From positions 3,976 to 67,975 of the forward strand of contig CANOYV010000003.1 of the NCBI GenBank assembly GCA_947571605.1: a stretch of DNA of 64,000 bases. Direction: 5' to 3'. Source of the DNA: an uncultured bacterium. GTDB lineage: Bacteria > Bacillota > Clostridia > Oscillospirales > Oscillospiraceae. The notes below the pieces were generated by a model, which was not told the DNA's origin, ran no database searches, and saw nothing but the letters and a program-made list of their open reading frames with translations. Below, one piece after another: positions 18,770 through 34,783 of the stretch. Each line of letters starts with the position of its first letter. The stretch's first letter is position 1. The position numbers were made by a program, and so were the translations under genes.

Positions 18770-19344
18770 AGCAACAACGGCTGAATCTGCTCCCCCCGGC
18801 AGGCGGCCTCGACGGTCTCGGGGACCAGGGTGAAGTCGGCCACCAGAGAGGTGGGCTTGCCCATGCAGTCGTCTTGGCCGAAGGGCACGAAGTACACGTT
18901 TTTGCGCCCCAGCATGGTCCCCAGGTTGGGGGCGCTCCCGGCTAAGCCGTCATTGGTAGCCAGCGCCAGCACCAGCGGTTTCCCGTTGCGCAGGTGCGCT
19001 TTCGCCGCCATGGTCACCGAGCTGTCAGTGACGCCGTGGGCCAGCTTGGCCAGGGTGTTGCCCGTGCAGGGGCAGATCACCAGCACGTCCAGCAGCCCCT
19101 TTGGCCCGATGGGCTCCGCCCCGGCCACGGTGTCGATCACCCGGCGGTCGCACAGCCGCTCCATCTCCCGCATAAAGTCGTGGGCCTTCCCGAACCGGGT
19201 GTCGGTGGACGCCACCGTCTCGGACACGATGGGCGTCACCGGCCCGAACCGGGCGGTCGTCTGCTCCAAAGCGTCCAGCGCCTTGGACATGGTGCAAAAG
19301 GACCCGCAGAACGCGAAGCCCACTTTTAACTCCTTATGATTCAC
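18757..19344 (-). CDS. spoVFB: Dipicolinate synthase subunit B
   Basis: VGFAFCGSFCT, AEPIGPK, PCTGNTLAKLA, NVYFVPFGQDD, KPTSLVA motifs; GTG start overlaps the spoVFA stop. Confidence 0.93.
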   Translation of the reverse strand: MNHKELKVGFAFCGSFCTMSKALDALEQTTARFGPVTPIVSETVASTDTRFGKAHDFMREMERLCDRRVIDTVAGAEPIGPKGLLDVLVICPCTGNTLAKLAHGVTDSSVTMAAKAHLRNGKPLVLALATNDGLAGSAPNLGTMLGRKNVYFVPFGQDDCMGKPTSLVADFTLVPETVEAACRGEQIQPLLLAQG

Positions 19345-19820
19345 AGGTCTGATTCCTCCATGATATGATAGACGGTATCCTTGATGTACCGTCCCGAGGT
19401 GACGGGAGCCACCTTTCCCGGCAGGGACAGCGCCCAGATCACCCGCACACCCAGGGTGGCGGCGGCGTCCATATCCACCCCGCCGGGGCGAGACGCCAGG
19501 TCGATGACCAGGGCCCGCTCCTTCAAAGCGGCCAGCTCCTCCACCCCCAGCACCGGGGCGGGCACCGTGTTGAAAACGATATCGTAGCTGCACAGCCAGT
19601 CGCTCAGGTGATCCATACCCTCGCTGTTCAGGCCCATGCACTCGGCGGCGGCCCGCTGCTCATACCGCCGGGCGGACACCCACACCCGGGCCCCCAGCGC
19701 CCGCAGCCGGGGCGCCAGCGTCCGGCCCAGCCGCCCAAAGCCGATGACCAGCACACGGGCGTCGTGGAGGGTGATGGGCAGCTCCTCCATGGCGATCTGG
19801 ATGGCGCCCTCAGCGGTGGG
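19341..19820 (-). CDS. spoVFA: Dipicolinate synthase subunit A, 3' portion (interrupted gene)
   Basis: PTAEGAIQIAM, Rossmann GFGRLG, IDLASRPGG, LSLPGKVAP; no 5' part adjacent, the missing 5' part is at 34398-34783. Confidence 0.92.
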   Translation of the reverse strand, partial: PTAEGAIQIAMEELPITLHDARVLVIGFGRLGRTLAPRLRALGARVWVSARRYEQRAAAECMGLNSEGMDHLSDWLCSYDIVFNTVPAPVLGVEELAALKERALVIDLASRPGGVDMDAAATLGVRVIWALSLPGKVAPVTSGRYIKDTVYHIMEESDL

Positions 19821-19843
19821 TAGGGCGTTAGCGGTATGGTAAC
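19819..19843. other. Attachment site adjoining the spoVFA 3' portion (P arm plus CC core)
   Basis: Core 19819-19820, 3-bp spacer, arm GGCGTTAGCGGTATGGTAAC at 19824-19843. Confidence 0.88.
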
Positions 19844-19845
19844 GC

Positions 19846-19885
19846 AAAAAAAGAGAGACGGCCATCAACCAGCCATCTCTCTTTT
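19846..19885 (-). terminator. Intrinsic terminator at the element end, facing spoVFA 3' portion and spoVFB
   Basis: Stem AAAAGAGAGAUGGC/GCCGUCUCUCUUUU with a U-G wobble on the minus strand, followed by a U7 tract. Confidence 0.75.
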
Positions 19886-19923
19886 CCGTTTAATAAATTA
19901 CACTTTGAGTTCCAATATCAATC

Positions 19924-20424
19924 TCATCTACAAACGTCCAATTGCTGCATTGGGACGGAAACTGCATGATTAAGCCACCCATCCTGATATGTCCCCACAT
20001 AAACATAAACAGGGATGGAGAGCCGTTCTAAATACCGCTCCATCAGCGGGCGAACCTCTTCCCAGTCCAGCCCGCCGTTTCCGCAGCCCAGCCGGGGAAA
20101 CGCGATGGAGGCGATTCCCTTTTCCACATAGGTGTCCGCGAATTTTTGCAACCCCGCCTCGATGTATTCCAGCTTAGAGGGACTCCGCCAATGCTTTTTG
20201 GTTGGGAACATAAGCACCCATTTTTCCGGGCCCTTCCAGAGGAGGAGCTTCCCGATTTCCAACTGTTTTTCATCGCATACCCGCTCGTAGCTCTTGAACA
20301 TCGCCGGGTAGCGCTTTTTGAATTCCAGCGCAACGCCCTTTCCCATCACCCCTACAGTGTTCACCGTATTGACCAGCACTTGCGCCGGACTGCTGAATAT
20401 ATCGCCTTTCAAATAGGTAATCAT
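19924..20424 (-). CDS. DarG-like macrodomain protein, macrodomain only
   Basis: VNTVNTVGVMGKGVALEFK, FPTKKHWR and SIAFPRLGCGNGGLDW match DarG-type macrodomains. Confidence 0.8.
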   Translation of the reverse strand: MITYLKGDIFSSPAQVLVNTVNTVGVMGKGVALEFKKRYPAMFKSYERVCDEKQLEIGKLLLWKGPEKWVLMFPTKKHWRSPSKLEYIEAGLQKFADTYVEKGIASIAFPRLGCGNGGLDWEEVRPLMERYLERLSIPVYVYVGTYQDGWLNHAVSVPMQQLDVCR

Positions 20425-20590
20425 CACCATCACCTCAAACACGCATCATCAATATTTAGTATAACACAGCAGAAAGAAAAGTAAAAGACAAATCGAACTA
20501 AGGCTCAAAGGATTTCACTTTCCTGCATATCTTTGAGTGCCTGTCAAGCCAACCAAGCGGGACAGGAAAAATTTTGCGCAGGATTTTTGA

Positions 20591-20690
20591 GTTTCTGCAC
20601 TATACTGCAAAAACTTTCTTCTTTTTATAGTTTCTGCACTACAGTGCAGAAACTTTTCTTTTTTCGACAATTTTGCACCGAGCAAACCCC
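20591..20690. repeat. Three 39-bp-period palindromic repeats
   Basis: Copies at 20591, 20630 (perfect GTTTCTGCACT-AC-AGTGCAGAAAC) and 20669 (degenerate). Confidence 0.65.
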
Positions 20691-20771
20691 CGGCCTCCTG
20701 AGAGGGGAGGCCGGGGGTTCAATCTCCGTCTGACACGGCTGCACCACCTCCCACCGCTGGAGGGGGAGGTG

Positions 20772-21179
20772 TTACAGCCATGACAGGTCAGCCGCAGAAT
20801 ATCGCTTCACAATTTCCCGCTCCATGCGCTGGAACGCGGGGATATAGGTGTCAATGATGGTCAGCGCCAATCTCCGGGCGGCGTTTCCATCGTATATATG
20901 GCTCATATTATTGCGGTCACGGAGCATGGCAATCCAAACGTCCTCATCCACAAAGTCATAGACCTGAAACGCTACCTTTAAAATCTCCCGGGGGGAGCCG
21001 GATCTGGCCTCACTCCTGCCCTCGTATTGGAGCAGTTCCTTGAGCACCTTCCACCCCAGTTCAAATTGAATCATAAATTTGTCGATGATTCCGCCTATGA
21101 CAAACTCATTTTCCAGGTCCTGCTGGCCCGCCGTTGACAGAACTTCCAGATTGGCCCGGTAATGGTCAAGCTTTTTCAT
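20772..21179 (-). CDS. HEPN-domain toxin, HI0074/HepT family
   Basis: GIIDKFMIQFELGWKVLK and the RNNMSH R-x4-H motif; paired with an MNT gene. Confidence 0.82.
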   Translation of the reverse strand: MKKLDHYRANLEVLSTAGQQDLENEFVIGGIIDKFMIQFELGWKVLKELLQYEGRSEARSGSPREILKVAFQVYDFVDEDVWIAMLRDRNNMSHIYDGNAARRLALTIIDTYIPAFQRMEREIVKRYSAADLSWL

Positions 21180-21462
21180 AGAGAACCCGTCCCTCCTTTT
21201 GAATCGAAGCCAGCAGGTCTGGAGAGACATCCTGGCCCATGTCCACCACATCATACTTCAACAGAGTGGAGGTCTCCTCGTCAATGTCCGTCGCGAACCG
21301 TGCGACGCTGCCGCCCCAGACCGCCAGATCAATATCGCTGGCCCGGTGGTGGTCCCCCCTGGCGCGGGAGCCGAACAGAACCACTTTGTCCAGCTGATGC
21401 CGCTGCGCAAACCGGCAGATTTCCCTCTGCACCTGCTCTTTGATCCCGGTTCCGGCCAGCAT
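21166..21462 (-). CDS. Minimal nucleotidyltransferase antitoxin (MntA-like)
   Basis: LFGSRARGD...SDIDLAV motif; overlaps the HEPN gene. Confidence 0.85.
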   Translation of the reverse strand: MLAGTGIKEQVQREICRFAQRHQLDKVVLFGSRARGDHHRASDIDLAVWGGSVARFATDIDEETSTLLKYDVVDMGQDVSPDLLASIQKEGRVLYEKA

Positions 21463-21575
21463 ATATCCCACCTCTTTTAAAAAATATCTGTATTATTTTT
21501 AGTATAGCACAGCAGAGAAAAAAGTAAAAGGCAAATCGAACTGACACATGGGAGAATTTTGTTTTCCCGGGTGAA

Positions 21576-21612
21576 GAACCCCGGCTTCTGAACACAACAG
21601 AAGCCGGGGTTC
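21576..21612. terminator. Hairpin downstream of the recombinase
   Basis: Perfect 15-bp stem GAACCCCGGCTTCTG/CAGAAGCCGGGGTTC. Confidence 0.6.
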
Positions 21613-21618
21613 CTACGC

Positions 21619-23217
21619 TCACACCACCTCCCACCGCTGGATGGTGGTGGTGTATTCCTCCCGTTTGCCGCTGGTGGTGTACCAGATGCGGAAGGTTCCG
21701 GGCACAAACTTTACCCGCACGTTTATGTAGTCCTCAAACACCGTGACGCTCTCAATGACCTCCCGATAGACCTCCTCCGAGCCGTTCAGCCCCGCCCGGA
21801 TGGTGCGCACAATGTCCTCCAGCCCCGTTTTTTGACTCTCCAGAGTTTGGGCCGCCTCCGTAATTGCCAGGAGTTCCCGGTCGATGGCCGCCAGCTCCCG
21901 GTCATACCGTGAGCGCATGGTTTGTAGCTCCCCATCGGAGATTGTCCCGCTGAGAAAGGCGTCCAGGGCGTTTTCCCGCTTGCGCTCAATGGCCGTCCGC
22001 TTGGCTTGGAGGCGGTCTGCGCTCCCGCCGTCATCCGGGGCGCTTTGCAGCTTTTGGATATCGGCCAGCAGCTCGGCCACAATGGCGTCGCTGTCCAGCT
22101 CCAACTGCCCCAGCACAAAGGATACGATGGTGGTCAGGCTCTTGTCGTTCACCATCCGCATGTCGCAGCCCACGGCCTCCCCCCGGCTGTCCCGCTTCCA
22201 GTTCCCGTAGTGTACCCGGCTGTGACAGCCCCAAGCCATGTACAGATCGCCGTTGGGCCGCTTCCGCTTGCGCAGGGTGAAGCGGCTTCCGCAGGCCCCG
22301 CAAAGGATTTTCCCGGAGCACCAGTAGCGGTTGGAGTATTTGGACTTGTCCCCCTGCTTGGCACTGCGCAGGGCAAGCTCCCGCTGGGTAGCGTCCCAGG
22401 TCTCCCGGTCTATAATGGCCTCGTGGTGGTCCCGAAGCAGGATCTGCTTCTCCTGGCCTCGGTTGGGCACCTTCTTGTGGTCGAGAAAATCAGGGGTGAC
22501 GTTCTTCTTCTGGAGCAGATCGCCCACGTGCTTCTCGTTGTGCAGGATACGCAGGATCATCACGGAGGACCATTTCCCCGTGGCGGTTTTGGGCGGGTCA
22601 ATCCCAGCCTCGTACAGCTCCCGGGCGATGACGTGGGTGCCCTTTCCCTCGTTGAGAAACTTGTGGTAAATGAGCCGCACCACCTGGGCCTCCTCCGGCT
22701 TGACGAACAGCTTCCCGCCTCGGGTGTCAAAGCCGTAGGTGGAGTTGTTGCCGAACACCACCCCCGCCTCCATGCGGCGCTGCTGGCCCCACTTCACCCG
22801 CTGGGAGGTCTTGCGGGACTCCTCCTGGGCGATGCTGGCCATGATGGTTAGGCGCAGTTCCCCGTCATTCTCCCGCGTGTCGATGTTGTCATTGATGAAC
22901 AGAACCCCGACGCCCAGGCTTTTCAGTTTCCGGGTGTATTCCAGGGTGTCCACGGTGTTTCGGGCGAAACGGGACACCTCCTTGGTGAGGATCAGATCCA
23001 GCCCGCCTGTTTCGGCCTGGGCGATCATGCGGTTGAACGCCTCCCGCTTGCGGGTGCTGGTGCCGGAGATGCCCTCGTCGGCGTACACTGTGGTCAAAAT
23101 CCAATCTTGACGGGCCTGGATATATTGGGTAAAATAAGTCTGTTGGCTGTGCAGGGAATTCGCCTGATCCTCCCGGTCTGTAGACACGCGGCAGTAGGCC
23201 GCTACCCGCAGCGGCAT
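21619..23217 (-). CDS. Large serine recombinase (SpoIVCA/CisA-like integrase)
   Basis: Catalytic YCRVST, DEGISGT, KEVSRFARN; recombinase domain, Zn ribbon (CSGKILCGACG) and coiled coil; intact ORF with AGGAGG RBS. Confidence 0.93.
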   Translation of the reverse strand: MPLRVAAYCRVSTDREDQANSLHSQQTYFTQYIQARQDWILTTVYADEGISGTSTRKREAFNRMIAQAETGGLDLILTKEVSRFARNTVDTLEYTRKLKSLGVGVLFINDNIDTRENDGELRLTIMASIAQEESRKTSQRVKWGQQRRMEAGVVFGNNSTYGFDTRGGKLFVKPEEAQVVRLIYHKFLNEGKGTHVIARELYEAGIDPPKTATGKWSSVMILRILHNEKHVGDLLQKKNVTPDFLDHKKVPNRGQEKQILLRDHHEAIIDRETWDATQRELALRSAKQGDKSKYSNRYWCSGKILCGACGSRFTLRKRKRPNGDLYMAWGCHSRVHYGNWKRDSRGEAVGCDMRMVNDKSLTTIVSFVLGQLELDSDAIVAELLADIQKLQSAPDDGGSADRLQAKRTAIERKRENALDAFLSGTISDGELQTMRSRYDRELAAIDRELLAITEAAQTLESQKTGLEDIVRTIRAGLNGSEEVYREVIESVTVFEDYINVRVKFVPGTFRIWYTTSGKREEYTTTIQRWEVV

Positions 23218-23285
23218 GGCGTTCACCTCCTTCTTTTGAAATGGGGTGGGCGCGGGCCAGGGTTTGACACCGCGCCCACGGTTGG

Positions 23286-23417
23286 TCAGGCCCGCTGGAG
23301 ACGCATCAGTTGCTCAAACTGGGCCTGGGTGATGTGGTGCTGGCGGTAGAGTTCGCGGATGAGGCCCTGCTTGATGAGGCTGCCCAGGCCGCTGCTTTCA
23401 TGGTTTTGTTGACGCAT
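23286..23417 (-). CDS. 43-aa protein upstream of the recombinase (candidate directionality factor, SHOCT-like)
   Basis: MRQQNHESSGLGSLIKQGLIRELYRQHHITQAQFEQLMRLQRA; co-oriented with the recombinase. Confidence 0.55.
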   Translation of the reverse strand: MRQQNHESSGLGSLIKQGLIRELYRQHHITQAQFEQLMRLQRA

Positions 23418-23510
23418 AGTTGCCCTTCTTTCCATATATTTACAGAAATAATATATACTCCTGGCCACTGTTTTAGCACCCGACGAGCTTGTAAACAGCT
23501 CCTCAGTGTG

Positions 23511-25136
23511 TTAGAATTGGGGCAAAAGGCGAATGCCGCGATATCCCCGCTGATCCTTGCCACCAATGCGCGGTTGCCAAGATACCTGCGGCCTTTGCTT
23601 CATCTGCTCTTTGAGCTTCCGCGAAAAATCAATTTGCGAAATCGGAGCCGATTCATTATAAGTGCAATACGCCTCAAACAACGCTTGGGTTGTCGTTTCA
23701 GATCCCGGCGCAAATTCACAACACTCCTCCAGGAAACGCCCAACCGAGCGGTAGCCGCTGCGGGCGTCCTGCGGCGCGTATTCCGCAGGAATTGGTACTC
23801 TGGTCAACTCAAACCCATTTTGTTCCAGCCGGTAATACGCCTCAATAGCCTCCCCGACAATATATGGAGCCTCATCCAGCAAATCTTTGTACAATTCCTG
23901 CCGCATTTCCCGTTCCCCGACAGGGTTTTGAAAATAAATTGTGACCATTCGATTGAGGAGCGCTGCTTCACGTTCGAGCTTTGGTATGCGCAGAGGGTGA
24001 TTCCCTGCCATCAAGAGCAGGGGTTTACTGTGGTAGGTACGCGAGTTCTCGTATTTGCGCTCCGCCTTGATTGCGTCATCCCCCACAAGCTGCTTGACAA
24101 TCCCAACAGCCCGAGGTGGAAGTACAGAATCCGGCAAATCCAGGCAAAGCGCCAGCATTTTTCCCTCCAGACTGCCGATTGTCCACCGATCACCAAAATC
24201 GTGGACATCACGGACACACATCGTTTGCTCCTGGCCCACCAGTTCCTCTAAAAAACGTCCAAACTGGGTTTTGCCCGTGTTGCTGGGGCCGACAAGCACA
24301 AAAAAGTGCTTGAGCGGTCTGCACAGAATGGTCAGGGCAACAAGCTGGAGCAGTTGCTCCCGCACATCCGGGTTCTCGCCTGAGATATGCGACACAAAAT
24401 CCTCAAAAATTCGTCCAGAACAACGTGGAACGTCTTTGAATTTGACGTTTATTGCTGAAAAGAAGTTGTCGCGAGGGTCATGGGGAAGAAATCGCCCGCT
24501 CGCAATATCGAAGGCCCCATCCAAAAAGTTGATTTTGCCAGCCGCCGGAGTGACTTCTCCTGTCAGGCACAGCACGCTTGGATCGCCGAGGAGCCCCTTT
24601 CGTAGCTGCTCATACTCCCTGTTTGTCAGGCAGTATCCCTGGTTATGTGACTCTATGAGCGCCCGAATTTCTCGCTCGGCTTCCAGGTCGGACAGTTTTC
24701 TCCAGCAGGGTGGGTAATAGACACATAGTTGGTCGCCAAGGAGTATAAAGCGTTGCGATTGGGCAACAAACTTCTGTAGCGCCACCAAATCCACTCGATC
24801 CCTGCGTTTCCCCAAGCCCTTGGAAATATCTGGGATTTTAGGTTTGGCGCTGTCTGGGAGTTCAAACCCATTTACGTCCCTTGCCCAGGCATCCACGGAA
24901 ATGTCCGGCTCCAACTCCACGTTTCCCTTGAACGGCAGCTCCCAAGGGGTGAATTCACTGTCCTCGGGCAGGTCAAATTCGCCCTCCGGCTGCCACCCTC
25001 CGACAAGGAAGGGCGGCGAGCCGAAATCTGGCGCAAGTGGCAACGAATCCAGGGCAGGCTCCTCCAAGTCCACCTCACCCCTCGGACAAGGGATTGGACC
25101 CGGCTCAAAAATGAATGACAGGTTCACAAACGGCAC
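23511..25136 (-). CDS. Phage/plasmid P4-family D5-like SF3 helicase
   Basis: INFLDGAFD, Walker A GPSNTGKT, KQLVGDDAIKAERKY, LLMAGNH; start uncertain; no primase domain recognised. Confidence 0.8.
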   Translation of the reverse strand: MPFVNLSFIFEPGPIPCPRGEVDLEEPALDSLPLAPDFGSPPFLVGGWQPEGEFDLPEDSEFTPWELPFKGNVELEPDISVDAWARDVNGFELPDSAKPKIPDISKGLGKRRDRVDLVALQKFVAQSQRFILLGDQLCVYYPPCWRKLSDLEAEREIRALIESHNQGYCLTNREYEQLRKGLLGDPSVLCLTGEVTPAAGKINFLDGAFDIASGRFLPHDPRDNFFSAINVKFKDVPRCSGRIFEDFVSHISGENPDVREQLLQLVALTILCRPLKHFFVLVGPSNTGKTQFGRFLEELVGQEQTMCVRDVHDFGDRWTIGSLEGKMLALCLDLPDSVLPPRAVGIVKQLVGDDAIKAERKYENSRTYHSKPLLLMAGNHPLRIPKLEREAALLNRMVTIYFQNPVGEREMRQELYKDLLDEAPYIVGEAIEAYYRLEQNGFELTRVPIPAEYAPQDARSGYRSVGRFLEECCEFAPGSETTTQALFEAYCTYNESAPISQIDFSRKLKEQMKQRPQVSWQPRIGGKDQRGYRGIRLLPQF

Positions 25137-25632: not shown

Positions 25633-25769
25633 AACAAGCTCCTCCTCGTCGATTGTGTGTTTGCTCGGCGCCGTTCGCATTTTCAGTGTAGCACGTCCCC
25701 TGGTGTGCTTGTAGGGGGGGATTAAAAAAACTTTTTCCCCCTCCCCCCCAGTGTCAATAGGCACCACAA

Positions 25770-25822
25770 AAAATATCGGAGGTATTGGGAAGCCAATCAT
25801 TTCCCAATACCTCCGATATTTT
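25770..25822. terminator. Perfect 22-bp hairpin after the low-GC ORF
   Basis: AAAATATCGGAGGTATTGGGAA-N9-TTCCCAATACCTCCGATATTTT. Confidence 0.6.
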
Positions 25823-27573: not shown

Positions 27574-27657
27574 ATGCTGTACCTGTTCCTGTCCGCCCTC
27601 CGCGCCGTCTTATACGAAGTGGCGGTCTGTCTGCTCCGCGGCGTCTGCTGCGCGTAG
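27574..27657 (+). CDS. 27-aa hydrophobic peptide
   Basis: MLYLFLSALRAVLYEVAVCLLRGVCCA; strong AAGGAGG RBS. Confidence 0.45.
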   Translation: MLYLFLSALRAVLYEVAVCLLRGVCCA

Positions 27658-27792
27658 CAACACCTATCACCCGGAAAGGAGCGCGATCCCCAATGATGAA
27701 CTGAGCAACGATATCCTGAGCCTTTTGGCCGCCGCTGTGGCCGCCGGTCTGTGCGCGGCCATCGACTACATTTTAGAGGAGGAAACAGACTG

Positions 27793-28904
27793 ATGACAGA
27801 AACCTTTATTTGCTCTGCCTGTGGAGAGGTCCACCCGCTGGAGGATCGGACGGTGGTGGACGGCCAGGAGTTCTGCCGCCCCTGCCTGGAGGAGGAAACC
27901 GTTGTGTGCCACGAGTGCGGCCGGCACATCCTGCGGGAGGACAACGCGGGGGACGATACCACGCCCCTGTGCCAGAACTGCTATGACCGCTATTACACCA
28001 ACTGCACCCGCTGCGGGGCGCTACTGGAGCTGGACCGCGCCTACTACCTCAGCGATGACGCGGACGAGGAGGAGCCGTTATGTCACGGCTGCTATGCGCT
28101 GCGTACCGATCCCGGGGAAATCCACAGCTATTACTACAAGCCGGACCCCATTTTCTATGGGGAAGGGGCACGCTATTTCAGCGTGGAGCTGGAAATCGAC
28201 GGGGCGGGGGAGCGCAGCGACCGGGCGTGGCAGTTGGTGAACGCGGCTAACAGCAACGGTTTGGAGCACATCTACATCAAGCATGACGGTTCCCTGGAGG
28301 ACGGCATGGAGATTGTTACCCACCCTATGACCCTGGGCTATCACCTCGCCGAGATGCCCTGGGGCGCGGTGGTGGCCGAGGCCGTCCGCATGGGCTACAC
28401 CAGCCATAAAGCCTGTACCTGCGGCCTCCATGTCCACGTCAATCGCTCGGCCTTTGGCCTGTCCGAGGAGGCCCAGGAGGCGGTGATCGCCCGCATCCTG
28501 TTCTTTGTGGAGAACCATTGGAACGAGCTGCTGCGGTTCAGCCGCCGCACCCGAGACCAGATGGAGCAGTGGGCGGCCCGGTATGGCTGGAAGGACAACC
28601 CCAAGGCGGTGCTGGACAGCGCCAAAAAGGAGCACTACCAACGGTACAAATGGTGAACCTGACCAATTATGATACCATAGAGTTTCGGATGTTCCGGGGG
28701 ACGCTGAAGCTCAATACCCTGATTGCCACCTTGCAGATGGTTGACCGCATCTGTGAGGTGGCTTTGTATTTGTCCGACCAGGAGATGCAGGGCCTGACCT
28801 GGACGGATTTTGTGTCCGGCTGTACCGCCCCGGAGCTGGTGCAGTACCTCAAGGAGCGGCGGCTCTACATCAACGAGCCGGTGGCCGTCCCCGAGGAGGT
28901 GTGA
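27793..28904 (+). pseudogene. Zn-finger-rich putative amidoligase (COOH-NH2 ligase type 2), frameshifted near 28651
   Basis: Multiple CxxC motifs, VELEID, KHDGSL, MEIVTHP, CGLHVHV; C-terminal TIEFRMFRGT lies in another frame (28518-28904 ORF). Confidence 0.78.
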
Positions 28905-28906
28905 CC

Positions 28907-29863
28907 ATGTGCGCCATTTTCGGAGTGCTGGACTATCAGGGAAAGCTGACCCCGCCCCAGCGGATCGGGCTGTTTCGGGCGCTGGCGGATGCCGCCCAGG
29001 CGAGGGGCACCGATGCCAGCGGGGTGGCCTATATTCATAACGGGGTCGTGCAGATTCAGAAAGCCCCCCGGCCCGCCTGTAGAATGCGCTGGCGCATTCC
29101 TTCCCAGGCCCGGTATCTCATGGGCCACACCCGCATGACCACCCAGGGGGCGGCATCCAGGAACTACAACAACCACCCCTTTCCCGGCAGGGCCGGAACC
29201 CAGCCCTTTGCCCTGGCCCACAACGGGGTAATCTATAACGATGTGGAGCTGCGGCGCAACCACCGTCTTCCGCCCACCGGGATTGAGACGGACAGCTATG
29301 TGGCGGTACAGCTTTTGGAGAAGGCCGGGAAGCTGTGCCCGGACAGCCTGTGCCGGATGGCGGAGCAGTTGGAGGGCAGCTTCACTCTCACGGTGCTGGA
29401 CGTGGAAAACACCCTGTACCTGATCCGGGGAAACAACCCCCTGTCTGTCCGGCTGTTCCCCAGCCTGGGGTGTTACCTCTACGCCTCCACCGATGAAATC
29501 CTCAACATGGCGCTGGCCGCGCTGGGGATTTCCAAGCTGGCCTACACCGATATCCCCATTGGCCAGGGGGACGTGGTGGCAATCAACCCCCAGGGGCGGC
29601 GTACTGTCACCCGATTTGACGATACCAAACTGCGGCCTCAGCGATACTTCTCCGATTGGGGCTGGTATGAACCCGCCAAGGAACCAGATGACTATATGGA
29701 AACCCTGATGGAATACGGCAAACGTCATGGGGTGCCGGAACGGGAACTGCGGCTCCTGATTAACGCCGGGTACGACGCGATGGACCTGGAGGAGATGATC
29801 TACGACAAGCAGTTTCGGGCGTACTGCCTCCGGGAGATCCTGGCGGAGTACGGGGTGCGCTGA
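28907..29863 (+). CDS. Class II (Ntn) glutamine amidotransferase-like protein
   Basis: N-terminal MC, RGTDASG, GHTRMTTQG, NNHPF, AHNGVIYN, TDS motifs. Confidence 0.85.
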   Translation: MCAIFGVLDYQGKLTPPQRIGLFRALADAAQARGTDASGVAYIHNGVVQIQKAPRPACRMRWRIPSQARYLMGHTRMTTQGAASRNYNNHPFPGRAGTQPFALAHNGVIYNDVELRRNHRLPPTGIETDSYVAVQLLEKAGKLCPDSLCRMAEQLEGSFTLTVLDVENTLYLIRGNNPLSVRLFPSLGCYLYASTDEILNMALAALGISKLAYTDIPIGQGDVVAINPQGRRTVTRFDDTKLRPQRYFSDWGWYEPAKEPDDYMETLMEYGKRHGVPERELRLLINAGYDAMDLEEMIYDKQFRAYCLREILAEYGVR

Positions 29864-29976
29864 GTGTGCCGCTGGGGTATACCCTAACGGCGCAGTGGAA
29901 AAGTATAGCAATAGGGCCGGTTTCCGGGTTTTGGCATATGCCACGCCCAGAACCGGCCCTATTGGCACCAATCTGT

Positions 29977-30315
29977 TTATTTCTGTTCTGCCAGGTGCGC
30001 CGCCAAATCCTGGCCCCTGGTACAGATGGCCCGGATAAAGACCTGTCGCCCGTCCTCGTCCACACTGTACAGCACCACATCATTCCGGGTGACATACTGC
30101 CGCACACCCCGCCCTGCCCACGGCTCCAGATGATAGGGCTGATACTTGAACGGGAAAGTGGCAAGCTGTTTCTGAATCTCAAATTTCAGCCGAAAATACC
30201 ACTCCTCAGCCAAATCTGGATCATGAAACTGGGCCGCAATATAGTCCGCCTTTTCCTCAATGTCCTGTATGGCGCTTTCGGTGTAGACAATCTTATACTG
30301 CGGTATCTGTGCCGT
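29977..30315 (-). pseudogene. RelE/ParE-family toxin with ACG in place of a start codon
   Basis: Open frame 30315-29977 (AQIPQYKIVYTESAIQDIEEKADYIA...VLYSVDEDGRQVFIRAI); begins ACG, overlapping the antitoxin 3' end. Confidence 0.68.
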
Positions 30316-30601
30316 GGGCGAACCGTCCTTTCATGCGGCGGTCAAGCTCGTCCTGGCTGTATACCCGGCCCGCCGCAATGTCGGCCTCGCTTCGGAGCAG
30401 CTTGGCATCTACCTCCTGGGCCGTCATATCCTCCCAGGCTTTGAGGGTGGGACGGAAAGGCATCCCACCCTCCCGCAAGCTCTGCTGGGCAAAAATGCGC
30501 ACGGCCTCCGCAAAAGAAGTGCCCAAATTGCGGTATAGCTCCTCCACTTCGGCCTTGAGGTCACTGTTCATTCTGATTTGCAGGGTGGCATCCATTGCCA
30601 T
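30293..30601 (-). CDS. RelB/DinJ-family antitoxin
   Basis: LQIRMNSDLKAEVEELYRNLGTSFAEAVRIFAQQSLREGGMPF. Confidence 0.85.
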   Translation of the reverse strand: MAMDATLQIRMNSDLKAEVEELYRNLGTSFAEAVRIFAQQSLREGGMPFRPTLKAWEDMTAQEVDAKLLRSEADIAAGRVYSQDELDRRMKGRFAHGTDTAV

Positions 30602-30613
30602 ATCCACCGCCTC

Positions 30614-30637
30614 CTTGTAGTGCTATTGTACTACAAG
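30614..30637. promoter_or_regulatory. Putative antitoxin autoregulatory operator
   Basis: CTTGTAGT-N8-ACTACAAG inverted repeat directly upstream of the antitoxin RBS. Confidence 0.5.
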
Positions 30638-30673
30638 TATTCCCTTGCGTCAAGAAAACTTGCTTGAAAGGAA

Positions 30674-31234
30674 GTGGCTGATTTGAAAATAGGTTACGTC
30701 CGTGTCAGCACCCAGGAGCAGAACACCATCCGGCAGGAGCTGCTAATGGAAAGCCTGGGTGCGGATGAGGTCTACATCGACCGCATGAGCGGCAAAAGCA
30801 CAGACAGGCCGGAGCTAAAAAAGCTGATGGAGTACGTGCGCCGGGGCGACACGGTGATCGTGGAATCCATCAGCCGGTTTGCCCGGAATACCCGCGACCT
30901 GCTGGAGCTGGTGGAGCGGCTGACGGCAAAAGGGGTGGAGTTTGTGTCCAAAAAGGAGGCCATCGACACCACCACCCCCAGCGGGAAGTTTATGCTTACC
31001 ATTTTCGGGGCGGTGGCCGAGCTGGAGCGGGAGTACATCCTACAGCGCCAGCAGGAGGGGATTGCCATTGCCAAGGCCCAGGGGGTTTATAAGGGCCGGA
31101 AGCCCATCGAACGCCCTGAGTTTCCCCAGGTGGCGGCGCTGTGGCGGGAGGGGAAAATCACGGCGGTGGAGGCCATGCGGCGGCTGGACATGAAGCCGCG
31201 CACGTTTTATCGGAGGGTGAAAGCCCTGCCGTAA
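30674..31234 (+). CDS. Small serine recombinase (resolvase/invertase)
   Basis: GYVRVSTQEQN, SGKSTDRPEL, SISRFARN, C-terminal HTH. Confidence 0.9.
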   Translation: MADLKIGYVRVSTQEQNTIRQELLMESLGADEVYIDRMSGKSTDRPELKKLMEYVRRGDTVIVESISRFARNTRDLLELVERLTAKGVEFVSKKEAIDTTTPSGKFMLTIFGAVAELEREYILQRQQEGIAIAKAQGVYKGRKPIERPEFPQVAALWREGKITAVEAMRRLDMKPRTFYRRVKALP

Positions 31235-31243
31235 AGAAAAAGA

Positions 31244-31585
31244 TCAGCCGCCCATTGGCTGATCTTTTTTTGCGTCCATTGCCATGAGAAACGTCCGCAG
31301 AAGCCGCTCCGCGTACTCCCGCTCCGTGGGTGTGGCGCTTTGAAGCATGAGGGCTATGGTATTGCTCTCCTCCACTGTGGACGTACCATATAAAATATAG
31401 TCCGTAGACAGCCGGAGGGCACGGGATATTTTACACAGGGTTGGGACGGACATTCCCTTCACCCCCAGCTCAATATCCGAGCAGAACTTGGGCGTCACGT
31501 CCAGCAGCTCGGCAAACTGCTCCCGGGTGTAGCCCATAAACTCCCGCTGTGTACGGATTCGCTTTCCAATCGCGCCCCAGTCCAT
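31244..31585 (-). CDS. XRE-family transcriptional regulator
   Basis: IGKRIRTQREFMGYTREQFAELLDVTPKFCSDIELG. Confidence 0.85.
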   Translation of the reverse strand: MDWGAIGKRIRTQREFMGYTREQFAELLDVTPKFCSDIELGVKGMSVPTLCKISRALRLSTDYILYGTSTVEESNTIALMLQSATPTEREYAERLLRTFLMAMDAKKDQPMGG

Positions 31586-31756
31586 TCAACCCCTCCGTTC
31601 CTTCTGTAGTTTAACCCGGAAAGTTGTAGTTATAAATAAACTTACAGGGTTGACTATTAAGAACTCTTGGGGTATATTTAACATGATAGGCCACTACAAC
31701 ACAGCCGGGATTTGGCCCAATCTCCATACTACACAAAAATGCAGGAGGATATGACT

Positions 31757-32323
31757 ATGGGAGAGTATGTCAAGAAGAAAAAAGATATGAAATTTCAAAG
31801 CCAGGATGCACTGAAAGCAGTTCAGACCGTGCTTGACGAAGCGGCCCAGGCATTGAATGACAAATCAAGAAAGATATCTGATTCTCCGATTGCCGATGCC
31901 CTCGCGGGCGCGGTGGGCGTAGGTCTGGGCGCGGGCATTGGCTTTGCGGGACTGTACCTCGGCGGCTCTGTTGTGGGCCTGAGCGCCGCAGGAATCACCA
32001 GCGGACTGGCCGCAGCCGGCGGACTGATTGGCGGTGGAATGGCGGCGGGACTCGCTGTATTGGCGGCCCCCGCCGTGGTGCTAGGCGGTGCTGGAATCGG
32101 TGTTGCTTCTCATATACGGAACAAAAAGCTGCGCGAAGCGAAAGAAATCCTTTACAAAGACGCTGTTGCCAAACAGTCAGCCATTGTAAGAGCATTGAAA
32201 GAGGAGACGAATGCGGATAAGGATCGAATTGAGTATCTGCAAAGCTTGAACATACTCCTCCAATCCGCTATCCGGGATTTGCAGCACGATTTGGGCAAAG
32301 ATGCCTTAGCGATTCGCACTTGA
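31757..32323 (+). CDS. Hypothetical glycine-rich membrane protein, paralog 1
   Basis: AGGAGG RBS; long Gly/Ala hydrophobic core and C-terminal coiled coil. Confidence 0.75.
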   Translation: MGEYVKKKKDMKFQSQDALKAVQTVLDEAAQALNDKSRKISDSPIADALAGAVGVGLGAGIGFAGLYLGGSVVGLSAAGITSGLAAAGGLIGGGMAAGLAVLAAPAVVLGGAGIGVASHIRNKKLREAKEILYKDAVAKQSAIVRALKEETNADKDRIEYLQSLNILLQSAIRDLQHDLGKDALAIRT

Positions 32324-32347
32324 TAAAGTATTGGAGGAATCCTTAAA

Positions 32348-32893
32348 ATGGGAGAATATATCACAAAAAAAGAGGACATGAAATTCCAAAGCCAGGAGGC
32401 CCTGGTTCCTGTGCAGAACGTCATCGACGAAGCGGGCAAGGTGCTGAACGATCCCTCGCTGCGGGTTGAGGATTCCGCCATCAGTGGGGCAATTACCGGG
32501 GCACTGGGTGCGGGTGCGGGCGGTGCCCTTGGATTTGCTGGGCTTTATTTTGGCGGTACGGTAGGGTTAAGTGCGGTAGGAATCACCAGTGGATTGGCCG
32601 CAGCCGGCGGGCTAATCGGCGGCGGTATGGCCGCAGGGCTTGCCGTATTGGCGGCCCCTGCTGTTATCCTGGGCGTAATTGGAGCCGCAATCGGCGCTGC
32701 TTCGGAGGAAGAAAAGCTCCATGAGGCAAAGGAGTTAGTATACAAAAACGCCATTGAAAAACAGACGGCGATCCTCAAAGTATTGGCCTTTGAAACCAAC
32801 GCGGATAAGGAGAGAATTGAGTATCTTACCGGCCTCAATATTCTCCTGGACTCCGCCATCAAAGATTTGAAACATGACTTGGGAATAGCGTGA
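32348..32893 (+). CDS. Hypothetical glycine-rich membrane protein, paralog 2
   Basis: Clear paralog of the preceding ORF (MGEY..K..DMKFQSQ.AL; GITSGLAAAGGLIGGGMAAGLAVLAAPAV). Confidence 0.78.
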   Translation: MGEYITKKEDMKFQSQEALVPVQNVIDEAGKVLNDPSLRVEDSAISGAITGALGAGAGGALGFAGLYFGGTVGLSAVGITSGLAAAGGLIGGGMAAGLAVLAAPAVILGVIGAAIGAASEEEKLHEAKELVYKNAIEKQTAILKVLAFETNADKERIEYLTGLNILLDSAIKDLKHDLGIA

Positions 32894-32914
32894 ATCCTTC
32901 TGGAGGGTAAATCA

Positions 32915-34315
32915 GTGAGCCATTTTAAATACTCCGATCAAGAGAAAGACTTGAATAAAGTATTGAAGATGAATTTGGACATCTCTAAGTCTCTGCAAAA
33001 TGATTCTGGCATGGCCTCCACCCGCAAAGAAGCCGACGCCGCCATCGCATCCTCCCTGGAACTACTGCAATCTCTTGGAAAAGGCAAAGAAGTGGGCAAA
33101 CTGGCCCAGGAGGTTTCCGAACATGGGAAAGACCGGCACCTGGAGCACCGGCCCGAAATAGAACCCTGGGAGGAGATTGTCCGTCAGGCCAACGAGTATT
33201 GCCCCACCCCTGTCATGCTGGAAGATATTATGTCCGACCGCGAGATACAGGCGGCGTTTGACGAGCGAGACGAAATCCGCAGACGCTTTGCGGAAAAGAC
33301 CAGCATCGTCAACCCTACGGACTTAACTTTTTTGACTGTCGCCACCGCCCTGCAAGTTGCCAAAAGCCTGATTTTCCCCTATGTAGCGGGGATGTTCCAC
33401 TATGGCGAGAGCTTTGACCCTGCCACCAGACTGGCCCATAATGACAAATCCATTGAGCGTGCGCACCGGCAAGCTAATGACGCATTCCGGGACAAGCGTT
33501 TGGAAAGCCATGGTACAGGCCACTGGATCAACATTCTGTATCAAACGCCTCCATACGACATTACAAAGGGCTCGGCGGCCATGGGCATCAACATGGGCGG
33601 GCGCTATCACCGAATGTACACCCTGGGCCATGACCCGATCCTGGGCTGGCTTTTCGGCACCATGAACATTTTAACCGATGTCATCACATTGAACAATTTC
33701 AACTCTTACCGGGTCATTCGAAAGCCTAAAATGATTATCACACCCGAGCCCGTTTCCATTGGTCAAATGATTCAGGAGAGCTATCAGCTTGTGCAGGATG
33801 ACTTTCTCAACCTCCCTGCGGCAGTCTTTGCCCAGGCACGGCATTTCAAGTCTGACGAGTACACAAAATGCGGGCTCCCGGTTCCGATTCTCTCCAGCCT
33901 CAACGAAAATTTTGCCAGCAAGCTCTATAGGTCGCAGTACGATGCCCTTTGCTTTGCCCGTGACGCCAAAATCGTGGGCGCATCATTTATCGTGTCAAAG
34001 CTCTTTGATATTGTCATCTCCCTCGTCCACGGGCTGTTCTGTACCGAAGGCGAGGACAAAGACCTGTTTGAGTGCAGGACGCGGAAAATCCTGCTAATCT
34101 CCAACAGCATCGCCTCCACCAGCACCATCATCCACGCGGGGATCACTGCCAATCCCAAAAATCTGGATATTGGCAGTCTGCTCAATACCATCACTCACCT
34201 GTTTACGGATATCCACTTCATTCTGCGGGTCAAGCAGGAGTTCATCGACAGCGAAATTTCAAGCAGATTGCAGAAGGAGCTTGACGAGGTGGACAGGCTG
34301 TACGAGACGATTTAA
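32915..34315 (+). CDS. Hypothetical 466-aa protein with hydrophobic segments
   Basis: Long lower-GC ORF with HRMYTLGHDPILGWLFG motif; third gene of the operon. Confidence 0.75.
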   Translation: MSHFKYSDQEKDLNKVLKMNLDISKSLQNDSGMASTRKEADAAIASSLELLQSLGKGKEVGKLAQEVSEHGKDRHLEHRPEIEPWEEIVRQANEYCPTPVMLEDIMSDREIQAAFDERDEIRRRFAEKTSIVNPTDLTFLTVATALQVAKSLIFPYVAGMFHYGESFDPATRLAHNDKSIERAHRQANDAFRDKRLESHGTGHWINILYQTPPYDITKGSAAMGINMGGRYHRMYTLGHDPILGWLFGTMNILTDVITLNNFNSYRVIRKPKMIITPEPVSIGQMIQESYQLVQDDFLNLPAAVFAQARHFKSDEYTKCGLPVPILSSLNENFASKLYRSQYDALCFARDAKIVGASFIVSKLFDIVISLVHGLFCTEGEDKDLFECRTRKILLISNSIASTSTIIHAGITANPKNLDIGSLLNTITHLFTDIHFILRVKQEFIDSEISSRLQKELDEVDRLYETI

Positions 34316-34322
34316 CCTAAAA

Positions 34323-34357
34323 GAATGCCCGAGCGGGATCGCCCTGCCCGGGCATTC
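34323..34357. terminator. Hairpin between the three-gene operon and the att site
   Basis: GAATGCCCG...CGGGCATTC stem. Confidence 0.55.
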
Positions 34358-34374
34358 GCCCCCTTCTCCCCACT

Positions 34375-34399
34375 GTTACCATACCGCTAACGCCACAGG
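34375..34399. other. Attachment site adjoining the spoVFA 5' portion (P arm plus CC core)
   Basis: Arm GTTACCATACCGCTAACGCC at 34375-34394 (exact reverse complement of 19824-19843), 3-bp spacer, core 34398-34399. Confidence 0.88.
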
Positions 34400-34783
34400 G
34401 ATTGCGTTCATCACCGCCAATTCCTCCTGTGCGAAATAGTCCCGCAGAACCAGTTCCCGCAACGCCGCCATCCGCTTCAAATCGCTCCCCGCCATCCCGG
34501 CGCATACAAGTTGGCCGGGACGCAGGGCGTTCAGCACTTCCTTCAGCTCATGACGCTCCGCCGCCAGCGGCGCGTTCAGCGTCCCGTCCGCCCACGCCGC
34601 CGGAAGGGGCAGGATTACACAATCCGCCCGGTCTATCCCGGCCATGGACGCCTCACATTTCATCTCTCCCCCCTGCTCCAGGGCGTAGGTATGCACGCTG
34701 TGACCGTCGTCGGCCAGCAGGACCGCCAACGCCGCCTGCCGGGGGTCGCCCCCCACTACCCAAATATTTTTTGCCCGCAGCAT
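34398..34783 (-). CDS. spoVFA: Dipicolinate synthase subunit A, 5' portion (interrupted gene)
   Basis: AGGAGG RBS; VVGGDPRQ, VILPLP, DYFAQEELAVMNAIP; the unexcised form stops at TAA 34376 inside the att arm. Confidence 0.92.

Follow-up and report, generated by a model that had tools for sequence, protein, structure and literature searches.

Intervening elements that interrupt sporulation genes have been described in spoVFB, sigK, spsM, gerE, spoVR and yabG, and our search of the literature found no published case in spoVFA. The closest described system is vfbin, in spoVFB of Bacillus weihenstephanensis KBAB4. As cited in two reports (PMC4191935, PMC6957869), vfbin (Abe et al. 2013) interrupts the same two-gene mother-cell dipicolinate synthase operon as the element analyzed here, and a site-specific recombinase removes it and rebuilds the open reading frame. 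Vfbin lies in the gene of the other subunit, in Bacilli, and is prophage-like, whereas our element lies in spoVFA of a member of the Oscillospirales, has no phage genes, and is one whose excision we infer. The skin elements in sigK depend on SpoIVCA in B. subtilis and on CD1231 with the recombination directionality factor (RDF) CD1234 in C. difficile (PMC5025042). As here, their recombinase and target are conserved while the cargo is unrelated between hosts, and the C. difficile skin element is likewise 14.6 kb long (bioRxiv 10.1101/2022.02.25.481979); the target gene differs, and in our element we found no RDF under the control of a sporulation sigma factor. SPbeta in spsM (SprA/SprB) is an active mobile element that doubles as an intervening element, as we propose for the present one, and its directionality factor is encoded by a small gene directly upstream of the large serine recombinase (LSR) gene, a position matched here by a 43-aa ORF (PMC4191935, PMC5499854). 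Unlike our element, SPbeta is a complete phage; our LSR is only a distant relative of SprA (PDB YokA, E 1e-14), and the 43-aa ORF has no detectable similarity to SprB. Finally, gin in gerE of Bacillus cereus ATCC 10987 is, like our element, not prophage-like and has more than one site-specific recombinase gene (PMC5595907); its target, recombinases and cargo are different. Elements of this kind have been described before, one of them even in spoVFB of the same operon; spoVFA as the target appears to be new.

The window that was analyzed is a stretch of 64,000 nt from contig CANOYV010000003.1 (GCA_947571605.1) of an uncultured Oscillospiraceae, and all coordinates count from its start. Its minus-strand spoVFA is interrupted, with break points at 34398 and 19820:

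34828..34856, (-), candidate sigmaK-type promoter upstream of spoVFA: CAC, 17 nt, then AATACACTG
34398..34783, (-), spoVFA (dpaA) 5' fragment: codons 1-128 and the CC of codon 129; DpaA_N at residues 6-117
19819..34397, intervening element: 14,579 bp (one CC copy counted), GC 54.3% against 63.4% in the flanks
19341..19820, (-), spoVFA 3' fragment: from the CC of codon 129 to the stop; NAD-binding domain; 159 open codons
18757..19323, (-), spoVFB (dpaB, flavoprotein subunit), from Pfam Flavoprotein and the called genes; start ambiguous between GTG at 19323 and an overlapping GTG at 19344

The 5' fragment has no internal stop and ends in ...AAC GCA ATC CC; in the integrated state it runs 7 codons into the element (PVALAVW) before a stop. 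The 3' fragment begins CC C ACC GCT GAG. When the halves are joined in silico via the single shared CC, they give 864 nt encoding 287 aa and a stop, reading ...AVMNAIPTAEGAIQ..., and the NAIPTAEG motif is regained in an intact reading frame. A rejoining at the shared CC into 287 aa had been claimed in a first-pass annotation of this DNA and is borne out, also by the lengths of intact homologues, which in a collection of 5.8 billion proteins are nearly all 287 aa, with identity up to 90%. The joined protein matches Pfam DpaA_N (E 3.6e-24) and a 2-Hacid_dh_C/Rossmann domain; these two domains, together with dpaB directly downstream, identify it as DpaA/SpoVFA. Insertion took place within the proline codon of the conserved N-A-I-P-T-A-E-G stretch, at its CC, and the break falls in the linker separating the two Pfam domains. 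The flanks are syntenic with intact loci of two relatives (L100 and L101), with rubrerythrin, NAPRTase and spoVFA-spoVFB-corA, and Spo0A is intact within the window. Gut bacteria require spoVFA for heat-resistant spores. The dpaAB genes are known to be expressed in the mother cell (bioRxiv 10.1101/2022.02.25.481979), and on this established knowledge of their expression the element interrupts the coding sequence of a mother-cell sporulation gene.

The ends of the element have the following features:

34375..34399, (-), attL: core CC at 34399-34398, then the attP-type arm TGT and GGCGTTAGCGGTATGGTAAC at 34397-34375
34325..34356, (-), hairpin and U-tract just inside attL, ~20 nt past the stop of the truncated 5' fragment; -22.5 kcal/mol
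19849..19885, (-), intrinsic terminator (hairpin and U7) immediately before the attP arm at attR; -22.4 kcal/mol, z-score -6.0
19819..19843, (-), attR: attP-type arm GTTACCATACCGCTAACGCC and CTA at 19843-19821, then core CC at 19820-19819

The attP rebuilt from these ends reads GTTACCATACCGCTAACGCC-CTA-CC-TGT-GGCGTTAGCGGTATGGTAAC. Its 20-nt arms are perfectly complementary inverted repeats equidistant from the CC, a symmetry beyond chance, which places the crossover firmly at the in-frame CC. Both the dinucleotide used for insertion, CC, and the arm motif are conserved across the clade to which the LSR belongs and, as judged from sequence, the element ends are the att sites of the element's own recombinase. 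The attB predicted for the excised state is GTGATGAACGCAATCCCCACCGCTGAGGGC. Both the 14,579-bp insert and the attB junction GCAATCCCCACCGCT had been given correctly in the first-pass annotation. An intrinsic terminator precedes the 3' fragment at all four element ends that were folded (the window element, L011, L014 and L019). The terminator at attR would keep transcription from running on into the 3' fragment and spoVFB, and no promoter candidate was found between it and the 3' fragment. Taken as sequence features, the terminators at both ends leave the integrated spoVFA pieces silent or truncated.

The architecture cAC-N16/17-[CA]ATAnnnT[GA] is found upstream of spoVFA, split or intact, in ~20 lineages; its assignment to sigmaK follows the Bacillus subtilis consensus. 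Within the window element no sigmaE- or sigmaK-type promoter was found, and this holds also for the region ahead of the small ORF and LSR. Some relatives (L014, L017, L019, L021 and the L058 group) do have such motifs or may allow read-through from the spoVFA promoter. The small ORF and LSR follow the 5' fragment at a distance of 200-550 nt and in the same orientation in seven relatives; no terminator was detected between the fragment and this pair in five of the seven, so that in these five the spoVFA promoter could drive the recombination module.

The recombination module of the window element consists of two genes:

23286..23417, (-), 43-aa ORF directly upstream of the LSR; motif GLLRExYR..[IL][TS]..QF
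21619..23217, (-), LSR, 532 aa from ATG; Pfam Resolvase, Recombinase and Zn_ribbon_recom

The LSR, which had been described as an intact protein between the halves and is one, is co-oriented with spoVFA and matches the PHROGs integrase (E 9e-125). Its N-terminal serine-recombinase motif region (A7 Y8 C9 R10 V11 S12 T13) is invariant among eight aligned clade members; this region, the three Pfam domains and the non-palindromic CC at the centre of attP mark it as a serine integrase. Among the characterised LSR families of NCBIfam it has only weak, sub-threshold matches to CcrC, CcrB and XisF, with no orthology. The LSR dN/dS is 0.1-0.2. The protein collection lists the exact LSR in 109 blocks, with the same context at every place inspected, and no intact spoVFA of the same allele is on record. 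The LSR lies at or near an edge of the element, as spoIVCA does in skin elements (bioRxiv 10.1101/2022.02.25.481979). In a profile search, the large majority of fetched LSR loci, spoVFA-linked or not, had a homologue of the 43-aa ORF immediately preceding the LSR; its presence beside LSRs with other targets indicates that it is not specific to sporulation. The ORF has no match to known families and is, by its position (compare sprB upstream of sprA), a candidate RDF. Overall, the structural reading of the first-pass annotation, a spoVFA split by a serine-integrase element with precise in-frame reconstitution possible, is fully supported.

The remaining genes of the element are, by their sequence matches, defence-like and replication genes:

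32915..34315, (+), BnzB-like protein (Bunzi defence system), 466 aa; PADLOC BnzB, E 8e-24
31712..32893, (+), two paralogous Gly-rich membrane proteins (31712-32323 and 32348-32893)
31244..31585, (-), XRE-family HTH regulator; Pfam HTH_3, PHROGs transcriptional regulator/repressor
30674..31234, (+), small serine recombinase (resolvase/invertase), 186 aa; Pfam Resolvase E 3.6e-45, PHROGs DNA invertase
27751..29863, (+), Amidoligase_2 gene, then class-II glutamine amidotransferase
27142..27348, (-), HTH_17 'excisionase family' DNA-binding protein, 68 aa; NCBIfam TIGR01764
23511..25136, (-), P4-family primase/helicase; D5_N and DUF5906 domains
20772..21471, (-), MNT/HEPN pair (nucleotidyltransferase and substrate-binding partner); PADLOC candidate family PDC-S09
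19924..20442, (-), stand-alone macro-domain protein, DarG-macrodomain-like; Pfam Macro

The first Gly-rich protein (31712-32323), the one paralogue covered by the PADLOC scan, has a weak match to BnzA (E 3e-8), and the PADLOC match of the macro-domain protein to DarG (E 1e-65) covers only profile positions 1-145 of 329. The small serine recombinase is the element's second recombinase. Amidoligase_2 is frameshifted in the window at ~28652; an intact 370-aa gene is present in L004 and L009, and an extra C follows 28652 in runs X2-X5. In some strains a 469-bp deletion (26959-27427) removes the HTH_17 gene, and its joint is present in X4, X5, X15, X25 and X33. No phage structural genes were found in the element by Pfam and PHROGs, and a search of IMG/VR turned up neither attP nor a spoVFA fragment next to an LSR, and no full-length relative of the LSR with more than 49% identity. 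A prophage or prophage remnant was rejected on these grounds. The same element is found in two other species (L020 and L023) with 96-97.5% nucleotide identity, whereas the host flank is only 88% identical, which indicates that the element was recently mobile; a domesticated remnant was therefore rejected as well. Elsewhere, the cargo of spoVFA elements includes defence systems, among them whole CRISPR-Cas I-C loci.

A survey of relatives for empty and occupied spoVFA, proposed with the original annotation, yielded both states. Among the best 80 LSR loci in species-representative genomes, 29 have spoVFA broken at the same CC, and the same break occurs in L011-L019, which were fetched through protein look-ups. 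Relatives of the LSR occupy this CC of spoVFA in at least 29 species-representative Oscillospirales genomes, where the cargo is unrelated, and many related organisms carry an intact gene. The LSRs linked to spoVFA belong to a single clade. Each of the 20 distinct 5' fragments is open, and the 3' fragments are open and of the correct length except at ~7 loci, which have a second insertion or a contig edge. The dN/dS of the fragments is 0.08-0.23 against close relatives and 0.03-0.19 in pairs in which the divergence of the LSR equals or exceeds that of the host gene. In shallow comparisons the divergence of LSR and host gene is discordant, so that much of the signal of purifying selection could predate insertion.

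The element is an integrative, non-phage mobile element with an LSR specific for spoVFA, and it is probably excised in the mother cell during sporulation in the manner of skin. The split at the same dinucleotide in ~30 species by one LSR clade, the open fragments with dN/dS of 0.03-0.23, the conserved sigmaK-type promoter and the terminators that insulate the 3' fragment and spoVFB lend indirect support to such excision. The LSR inserted the 14.6-kb element at the proline-codon CC, and integration sets the sigmaK-type promoter, along with DpaA_N, apart from spoVFB and the NAD-binding domain. If the element behaves like skin/SpoIVCA, SPbeta SprA/SprB and vfbin, attL and attR would be recombined in the sporulating mother cell by the LSR and a directionality factor, for which the conserved 43-aa ORF just upstream of the LSR is the best candidate. 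A 14,579-bp circle would be released, spoVFA-spoVFB would be rebuilt under their own promoter and dipicolinate could be made, while the forespore chromosome would retain the element. The element is also horizontally mobile, having entered the same site in other species.

It is also conceivable, and in our view unlikely, that the insertion simply inactivates the gene: a highly conserved coding stretch in spoVFA, a gene dispensable for vegetative growth in the gut, would be a reliable landing site in hosts without SpoVFA-dependent dipicolinate or sporulation, and excision would be rare and would serve transfer only. The recent movement of the element between species, the lack of a sporulation promoter found within it and the intact gene in many related organisms are compatible with such inactivation. 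Descriptions of cultured relatives call them non-spore-forming or variable (PMC12050419), and some clostridial non-sporeformers have dpaAB genes too (bioRxiv 10.1101/2022.02.25.481979). Nor were attB or attP junctions found in the Logan contigs of 12 DNA and metatranscriptome runs, a weak negative since contigs drop rare variants. These points and the missing sporulation promoter also count against skin-like excision. Against plain inactivation, none of ~35 independent split genes has a stop or frameshift in either fragment, the dN/dS of the fragments is as low as that of spoVFB even where the LSRs predate the host split, the spoVFA promoter is retained and the whole LSR clade keeps to spoVFA; a permanently broken spoVFA would, moreover, be purged if transmission needs spores.

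Excision and re-integration in some vegetative cells, as in active lysogeny or a phage regulatory switch, would give sporulation-competent and incompetent subpopulations. LSR systems are reversible when they include a directionality factor, the 'yin' element in yabG of C. botulinum is both integrated and excised in one culture (PMC10747680), and the element encodes a primase and could persist as an episome. Such a switch is nevertheless quite improbable here, as no empty site or circle of the same allele was found in any assembly and contigs span both element junctions in every run inspected. The break in the linker between two Pfam domains and the purifying selection on both fragments could alternatively mean that the DpaA_N and NAD-binding domains act as separate polypeptides that assemble without DNA rearrangement. 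We give this very little credence: the break cuts through the most conserved motif of the protein, a strong terminator lies directly upstream of the 3' fragment with no promoter candidate between, and spoVFB would lose its promoter too.

Skin-like excision in the mother cell can be extended in ways that are possible but that we hold with some doubt. The monophyletic LSR clade and its 43-aa partner may form a portable spoVFA switch across gut Oscillospirales, with spoVFA as a germline-only dock for defence islands (including CRISPR-Cas I-C) that are deleted from the mother cell; read-through from the host sigmaK promoter across the 5' fragment and on into the recombination module may make excision self-timing in some architectures, and the 43-aa protein may represent a new, very widespread family of directionality factors. 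Defence systems including CRISPR-Cas ride on elements inside a gene needed only by a cell about to die. Should excision prove developmental, many abundant gut anaerobes, among them Pseudoflavonifractor, Flintibacter, Butyricicoccus, Intestinimonas and uncultured Oscillospiraceae, would need a DNA rearrangement to make dipicolinate, and their spore resistance and host-to-host transmission would hinge on it as well. The recombinases are also a natural set of serine integrases with 50-98% mutual identity, one well-defined attB and co-varying attP arms, useful for studies of target choice. The split explains why many genome annotations show dpaA as a pseudogene or as two separate genes, which distorts genome-based predictions of sporulation.

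Dipicolinate synthase subunit A, the product of spoVFA (dpaA), is certainly encoded in two pieces in the window, which are separated by an inserted element. When the window sequence was re-read and the halves were joined, the coordinates, the junction sequence and the 14,579-bp insert length of the first-pass annotation all proved right. The pieces are as follows.

34783 (ATG) to 34398, minus strand: spoVFA 5' fragment, ending ...AAC GCA ATC CC; encodes the N-terminal 128 residues
19820 to 19341 (stop), minus strand: spoVFA 3' fragment, beginning CC C ACC GCT GAG

Joined through one shared CC, the fragments form a reading frame of 864 nt (287 codons and the stop) that reads ...ELAVMNAIPTAEGAIQIAME... 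across the junction. Pfam assigns residues 6-117 of the joined protein to DpaA_N (E 3.6e-24) and residues 142-246 to an NAD-binding Rossmann domain. Nearly all intact SpoVFA homologues in a collection of 5.8 billion proteins are 287 aa long and cover the full query, the closest being 90% identical. The flavoprotein subunit gene, spoVFB, lies directly 3' of spoVFA and is followed by corA. The flanks of the element are syntenic with two uninterrupted loci, L101 and L100, in the genes for rubrerythrin and NAPRTase, in spoVFA-spoVFB-corA and in the nearby spo0A (39179-39940 in the window). Among the SpoVFA homologues in ENA is one of 369 aa (P0001) with an internal tandem duplication of ~80 residues (ELPITIHDARVLVVGFGRLG... 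is present twice), which may be an assembly artefact.

In spoVFA orientation, attL reads ...GCAATC-CC-TGT-GGCGTTAGCGGTATGGTAAC and attR reads GTTACCATACCGCTAACGCC-CTA-CC-CACCGCT... In the attP assembled from their element-side halves, the two 20-nt arms are perfectly complementary, and 3 nt separate each of them from the central CC. Because the arms are symmetric around this CC, the sole crossover that keeps the reading frame coincides with the midpoint of the inverted repeat. Such a layout is the anatomy expected of a large serine recombinase (LSR), and chance is excluded. The expected products of excision are an attB of ...GTGATGAACGCAATC-CC-CACCGCTGAGGGC... and an attP of ...CGCTAACGCCCTA-CC-TGTGGCGTTAGCG... 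With a GC content of 54.3%, the element is poorer in GC than its flanks (63.4%). In the window, the attP arm at attR is immediately preceded by a strong intrinsic terminator (-22.4 kcal/mol, z-score -6), and three elements with unrelated cargo have one at the same place; thus, without excision, the 3' fragment and spoVFB would be promoterless.

The contents of the element are listed from attL to attR, in the direction of spoVFA.

Just inside attL: terminator hairpin
31712-34315, opposite strand to spoVFA: BnzB-like protein (466 aa) and a paralogous pair of Gly-rich membrane proteins, together a candidate Bunzi-like defence module
Beside the small recombinase: XRE regulator
30674-31234: small serine recombinase (resolvase/invertase), the element's second recombinase
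Next: RelB antitoxin gene, then a 78-aa ORF
Next: glutamine amidotransferase and amidoligase, the latter frameshifted in the window
Next: 68-aa HTH_17 'excisionase family' protein
Between this protein and the primase: three proteins of unknown function
Next: P4-family primase, then a 43-aa ORF (23286-23417)
21619-23217: LSR (532 aa)
After the LSR, toward attR: MNT/HEPN pair
19924-20442: DarG-like stand-alone macro domain, matching the macrodomain half of DarG only

The BnzA match was obtained with the first Gly-rich membrane protein, the one scanned of the two. The 78-aa ORF looks, from its sequence, like the C-terminal part of a ParE/RelE-type toxin; in the related locus L003 a ParE_toxin gene adjoins relB. 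No DarT gene was found near the macro domain. Pfam and PHROGs detected no genes for capsid, tail, terminase or lysis functions in the element; it is therefore a small integrative element, and a prophage origin was rejected. In IMG/VR, likewise, neither a close relative of the LSR nor an attP was found, nor any spoVFA fragment next to an LSR. Overall, the element resembles a satellite or mobilisable element with defence-type cargo. The amidoligase_2 frameshift (27751-28904) leaves ORFs of 301 and 128 aa; other strains (loci L004 and L009, sequencing runs X2-X5) have one extra C (T in one run) after 28652 and an intact 370-aa protein. The pair of small serine recombinase and XRE regulator is also kept in the related locus L016.

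Two MAGs of other Oscillospiraceae species (L020 and L023) carry the window's element in the identical site at 96-97.5% nucleotide identity over 10-11 kb, whereas their spoVFA flank is only 88% identical to the window. Between the window and these loci, dS is 0.08-0.09 for the LSR and 0.33-0.38 for the host. The element is therefore actively mobile and has recently integrated into new hosts; in this it is unlike the skin element of B. subtilis, which is a fossil. The macro-domain end is the sole part of the window's element not shared with these two copies, which elsewhere are 96-97% identical. The intact locus L100 was considered as a same-species empty site and rejected, since it is a mosaic on a single contig at 3.9x coverage. 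Its spoVFA (L100:1453-2316) has no mismatches to the window from nt 507 to the gene end; the sequence before nt 507 is only 82% identical. Over the 3.2-kb alignment, which runs into corA and takes in the diverged 5' part, identity is 96.8%, and the upstream synteny differs. L100 may have arisen by recombination, with the element lost through allelic replacement, or be an assembly chimera.

The neighbourhoods of related LSRs were examined through protein look-ups and by scanning a single genome for each GTDB species. In a public assembly collection, 109 blocks contain the exact LSR protein, with the same context in every inspected place, and homologues at 57-97% identity are abundant. A spoVFA fragment lies at most 10 kb away in 29 of the best 80 LSR loci of the species-representative scan. 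Hosts of split spoVFA genes include uncultured Oscillospiraceae, Pseudoflavonifractor, Butyricicoccus, Intestinimonas, Agathobaculum, Hominilimicola and Flintibacter, several of them cultured isolates. Among the cultures that carry a member of the clade are Flintibacter muris DSM 110149, Pseudoflavonifractor intestinihominis CLA-AP-H29, Pseudoflavonifractor sp. HCP28S3_F10 and Butyricicoccus sp. Marseille-Q5471. The break falls at the identical CC in every spoVFA-linked case, within the proline codon of N-A-[IV]-P-T-A-E-G. The attP arm motif TACCGCTAACGC is kept where LSR identity is at least 61% and drifts in more distant members. In a neighbour-joining tree the spoVFA-linked LSRs form one clade, apart from LSRs at 47-51% identity, which come mostly from Lachnospiraceae and lack a nearby spoVFA. 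L035 alone breaks the pattern: its LSR falls inside the clade, but no spoVFA fragment is present on its 13-kb contig. Cargo is unrelated between spoVFA elements, as these relatives illustrate.

L014: CRISPR-Cas I-C and a xanthine-dehydrogenase-like cluster
L019: transporters and kinases
L011: AAA_14 ATPase and MNT/HEPN
L016: a set similar to that of the window

The LSR lies at or near the element edge, in three recurring arrangements; spoIVCA has likewise been noted at or near the edge of skin elements (bioRxiv 10.1101/2022.02.25.481979). The L014 element (L014:3074-19634, ~16.5 kb) holds a complete type I-C CRISPR-Cas locus, and its second cluster is of the molybdopterin xanthine-dehydrogenase-like kind.

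The split genes are well preserved. None of 20 distinct 5' fragments has an internal stop, and the 3' fragments are open for 158-160 codons to their stop, except at ~7 loci with a second insertion or a contig edge. Compared with close relatives, dN/dS is 0.08-0.23 for the spoVFA fragments and 0.07-0.19 for spoVFB. The fragments score 0.03-0.19 in species pairs in which LSR divergence equals or exceeds that of the host genes, pairs that fit a long-standing presence of the element. Relaxation of selection on the 5' fragment was not supported: the N-terminal half in the window is a little more divergent than is typical, ~79% identical to intact homologues, but within the normal range of intact-intact pairs (83-84%, sd 4.7). 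The pattern cAC-N16/17-[CA]ATAnnnT[GA] occurs upstream of spoVFA in ~20 lineages, split or intact. The Bacillus sigmaK consensus is AC-N17-CATAnnnTA, and the promoter candidate upstream of spoVFA in the window, CAC-N17-AATACACTG, matches it. In Bacillus, dpaAB is sigmaK-dependent (bioRxiv 10.1101/2022.02.25.481979).

Excision by site-specific recombinases in the mother cell is established for sigK (skin), spsM (SPbeta), spoVFB (vfbin), spoVR (vrin), gerE (gin) and yabG (yin) (PMC4191935, PMC5595907, PMC5025042, PMC6957869, PMC10747680). The kind of element is thus already known; what is added here is a whole LSR clade dedicated to one site, together with non-phage cargo in which defence genes abound and mobility that is clearly recent. 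Neither full-text searches and these papers nor a comparative survey of sporulation genes (bioRxiv 10.1101/2022.02.25.481979) yielded an account of spoVFA/dpaA being interrupted, the nearest mention being a prophage remnant 'in one of dipicolinate synthase subunits' of B. thuringiensis israelensis (PMC6199540). SprA and the LSR are not orthologues, their match reaching only E 1e-14; among solved structures, the LSR is closest to the catalytic domain of a putative conjugative-transposon recombinase (PDB 3g13).

Products of excision were sought in public data. The attB/attP joint (19820 to 34398) was not seen in Logan contigs of 12 mouse-gut DNA and metatranscriptome runs. Contigs of the mouse-gut runs span both element junctions, and the loose ends found there trace either to the inverted repeat of the element itself or to uninterrupted alleles from related organisms (e.g. 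a NAVATAEG allele in run X3 and alleles at the junction of the related locus L092). Coverage in the metatranscriptome runs is flat and uninformative on expression. The clade's attP and the species-specific attB were both absent from JGI metagenomes, a weak negative, the clade's attP was absent from IMG/VR, and the exact joined SpoVFA protein was absent among 15 billion sequences.

Developmental excision, in which the gene would be restored during sporulation, is on balance the best explanation of the split gene, and probably the right one. Plain insertional inactivation, in which the element would merely have broken the gene, seems unlikely to us. The open frames and low dN/dS of the fragments speak against it, and the recent mobility of the element means that part of this sign of purifying selection may be older than the insertion; the published description of cultured relatives is non-spore-forming or variable (PMC12050419). 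A reversible switch at the population level we regard as improbable; the contigs surveyed showed occupied sites and no joint. Least credible is a gene working in two pieces, which purifying selection on both fragments would suit and the attR-side terminator would oppose.

How developmental excision would be controlled was approached through the recombination module, the 43-aa ORF and the LSR. The promoter search used patterns based on the spoVFA promoters and on the sigmaE consensus. In the window element there were no sigmaK-type hits and two sigmaE-type hits, both inside coding sequence and equal to chance expectation, and no convincing promoter of either type was found for the window's module. 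Such motifs are present for the module in relatives L014, L017, L019, L011, L027 and L032. In seven relatives the module lies right behind the 5' fragment, with no terminator detected between them in five, and this layout, to which L021 and the L058 group belong, is one in which the spoVFA promoter could drive the module. Such read-through does not apply to the window, because a terminator follows attL and the module is 11 kb away.

The 43-aa ORF has the motif GLLRExYR..[IL][TS]..QF, and in the large majority of fetched LSR loci a profile built from it picks up a homologue immediately 5' of the LSR gene, including LSRs without a spoVFA target. No match was found in Pfam, NCBIfam, PHROGs or the PDB, which includes the SprA-SprB fusion. 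In SPbeta, sprB (yotN) lies upstream of sprA (yokA), the position that the 43-aa ORF holds relative to the LSR; by position only, it is the best candidate for a directionality factor. The 68-aa HTH_17 protein is an unlikely one. A 469-bp deletion (window 26959-27427), seen in contigs of runs X4, X5, X15, X25 and X33, removes its gene and part of the divergent promoter region; the protein is unlikely to be essential, since these strains keep the element. More widely, an unannotated family of 40-50 aa occurs immediately upstream of LSR genes across a large clostridial LSR group, whatever the target site.

A few related loci depart from the simple arrangement. In L029, L031, L034 and L052 (e.g. 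L031:4141-9682), from Butyricicoccus, Intestinimonas and a Clostridiaceae MAG, spoVFA is in three pieces, with a second insertion of ~5 kb at the conserved motif KPGG|VD near residue 243 besides that at NAIPTAEG. In L017:8812-20381 (L018 likewise), an LSR 64% identical to the window's and its small ORF lie 350 bp upstream of an intact spoVFA and face away from it; next come CRISPR-Cas I-C, an array of 10 repeats and, at 20341-20388, an intact attP with 23-nt arms and a CC core. The attB-like site in this gene reads NAVPSSEG. Here attP and the intact gene are present in cis. An inversion switch was considered for L017 and found no support, there being no locus with its two fragments oppositely oriented. 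Finally, the element of L027, whose attL is at 3791, contains a degenerate attP-like site (ATACCGCTAACGCACCA-CT-TGGGGCGTTAACAGTAGAG) at 16100-16170, which suggests tandem or composite elements.
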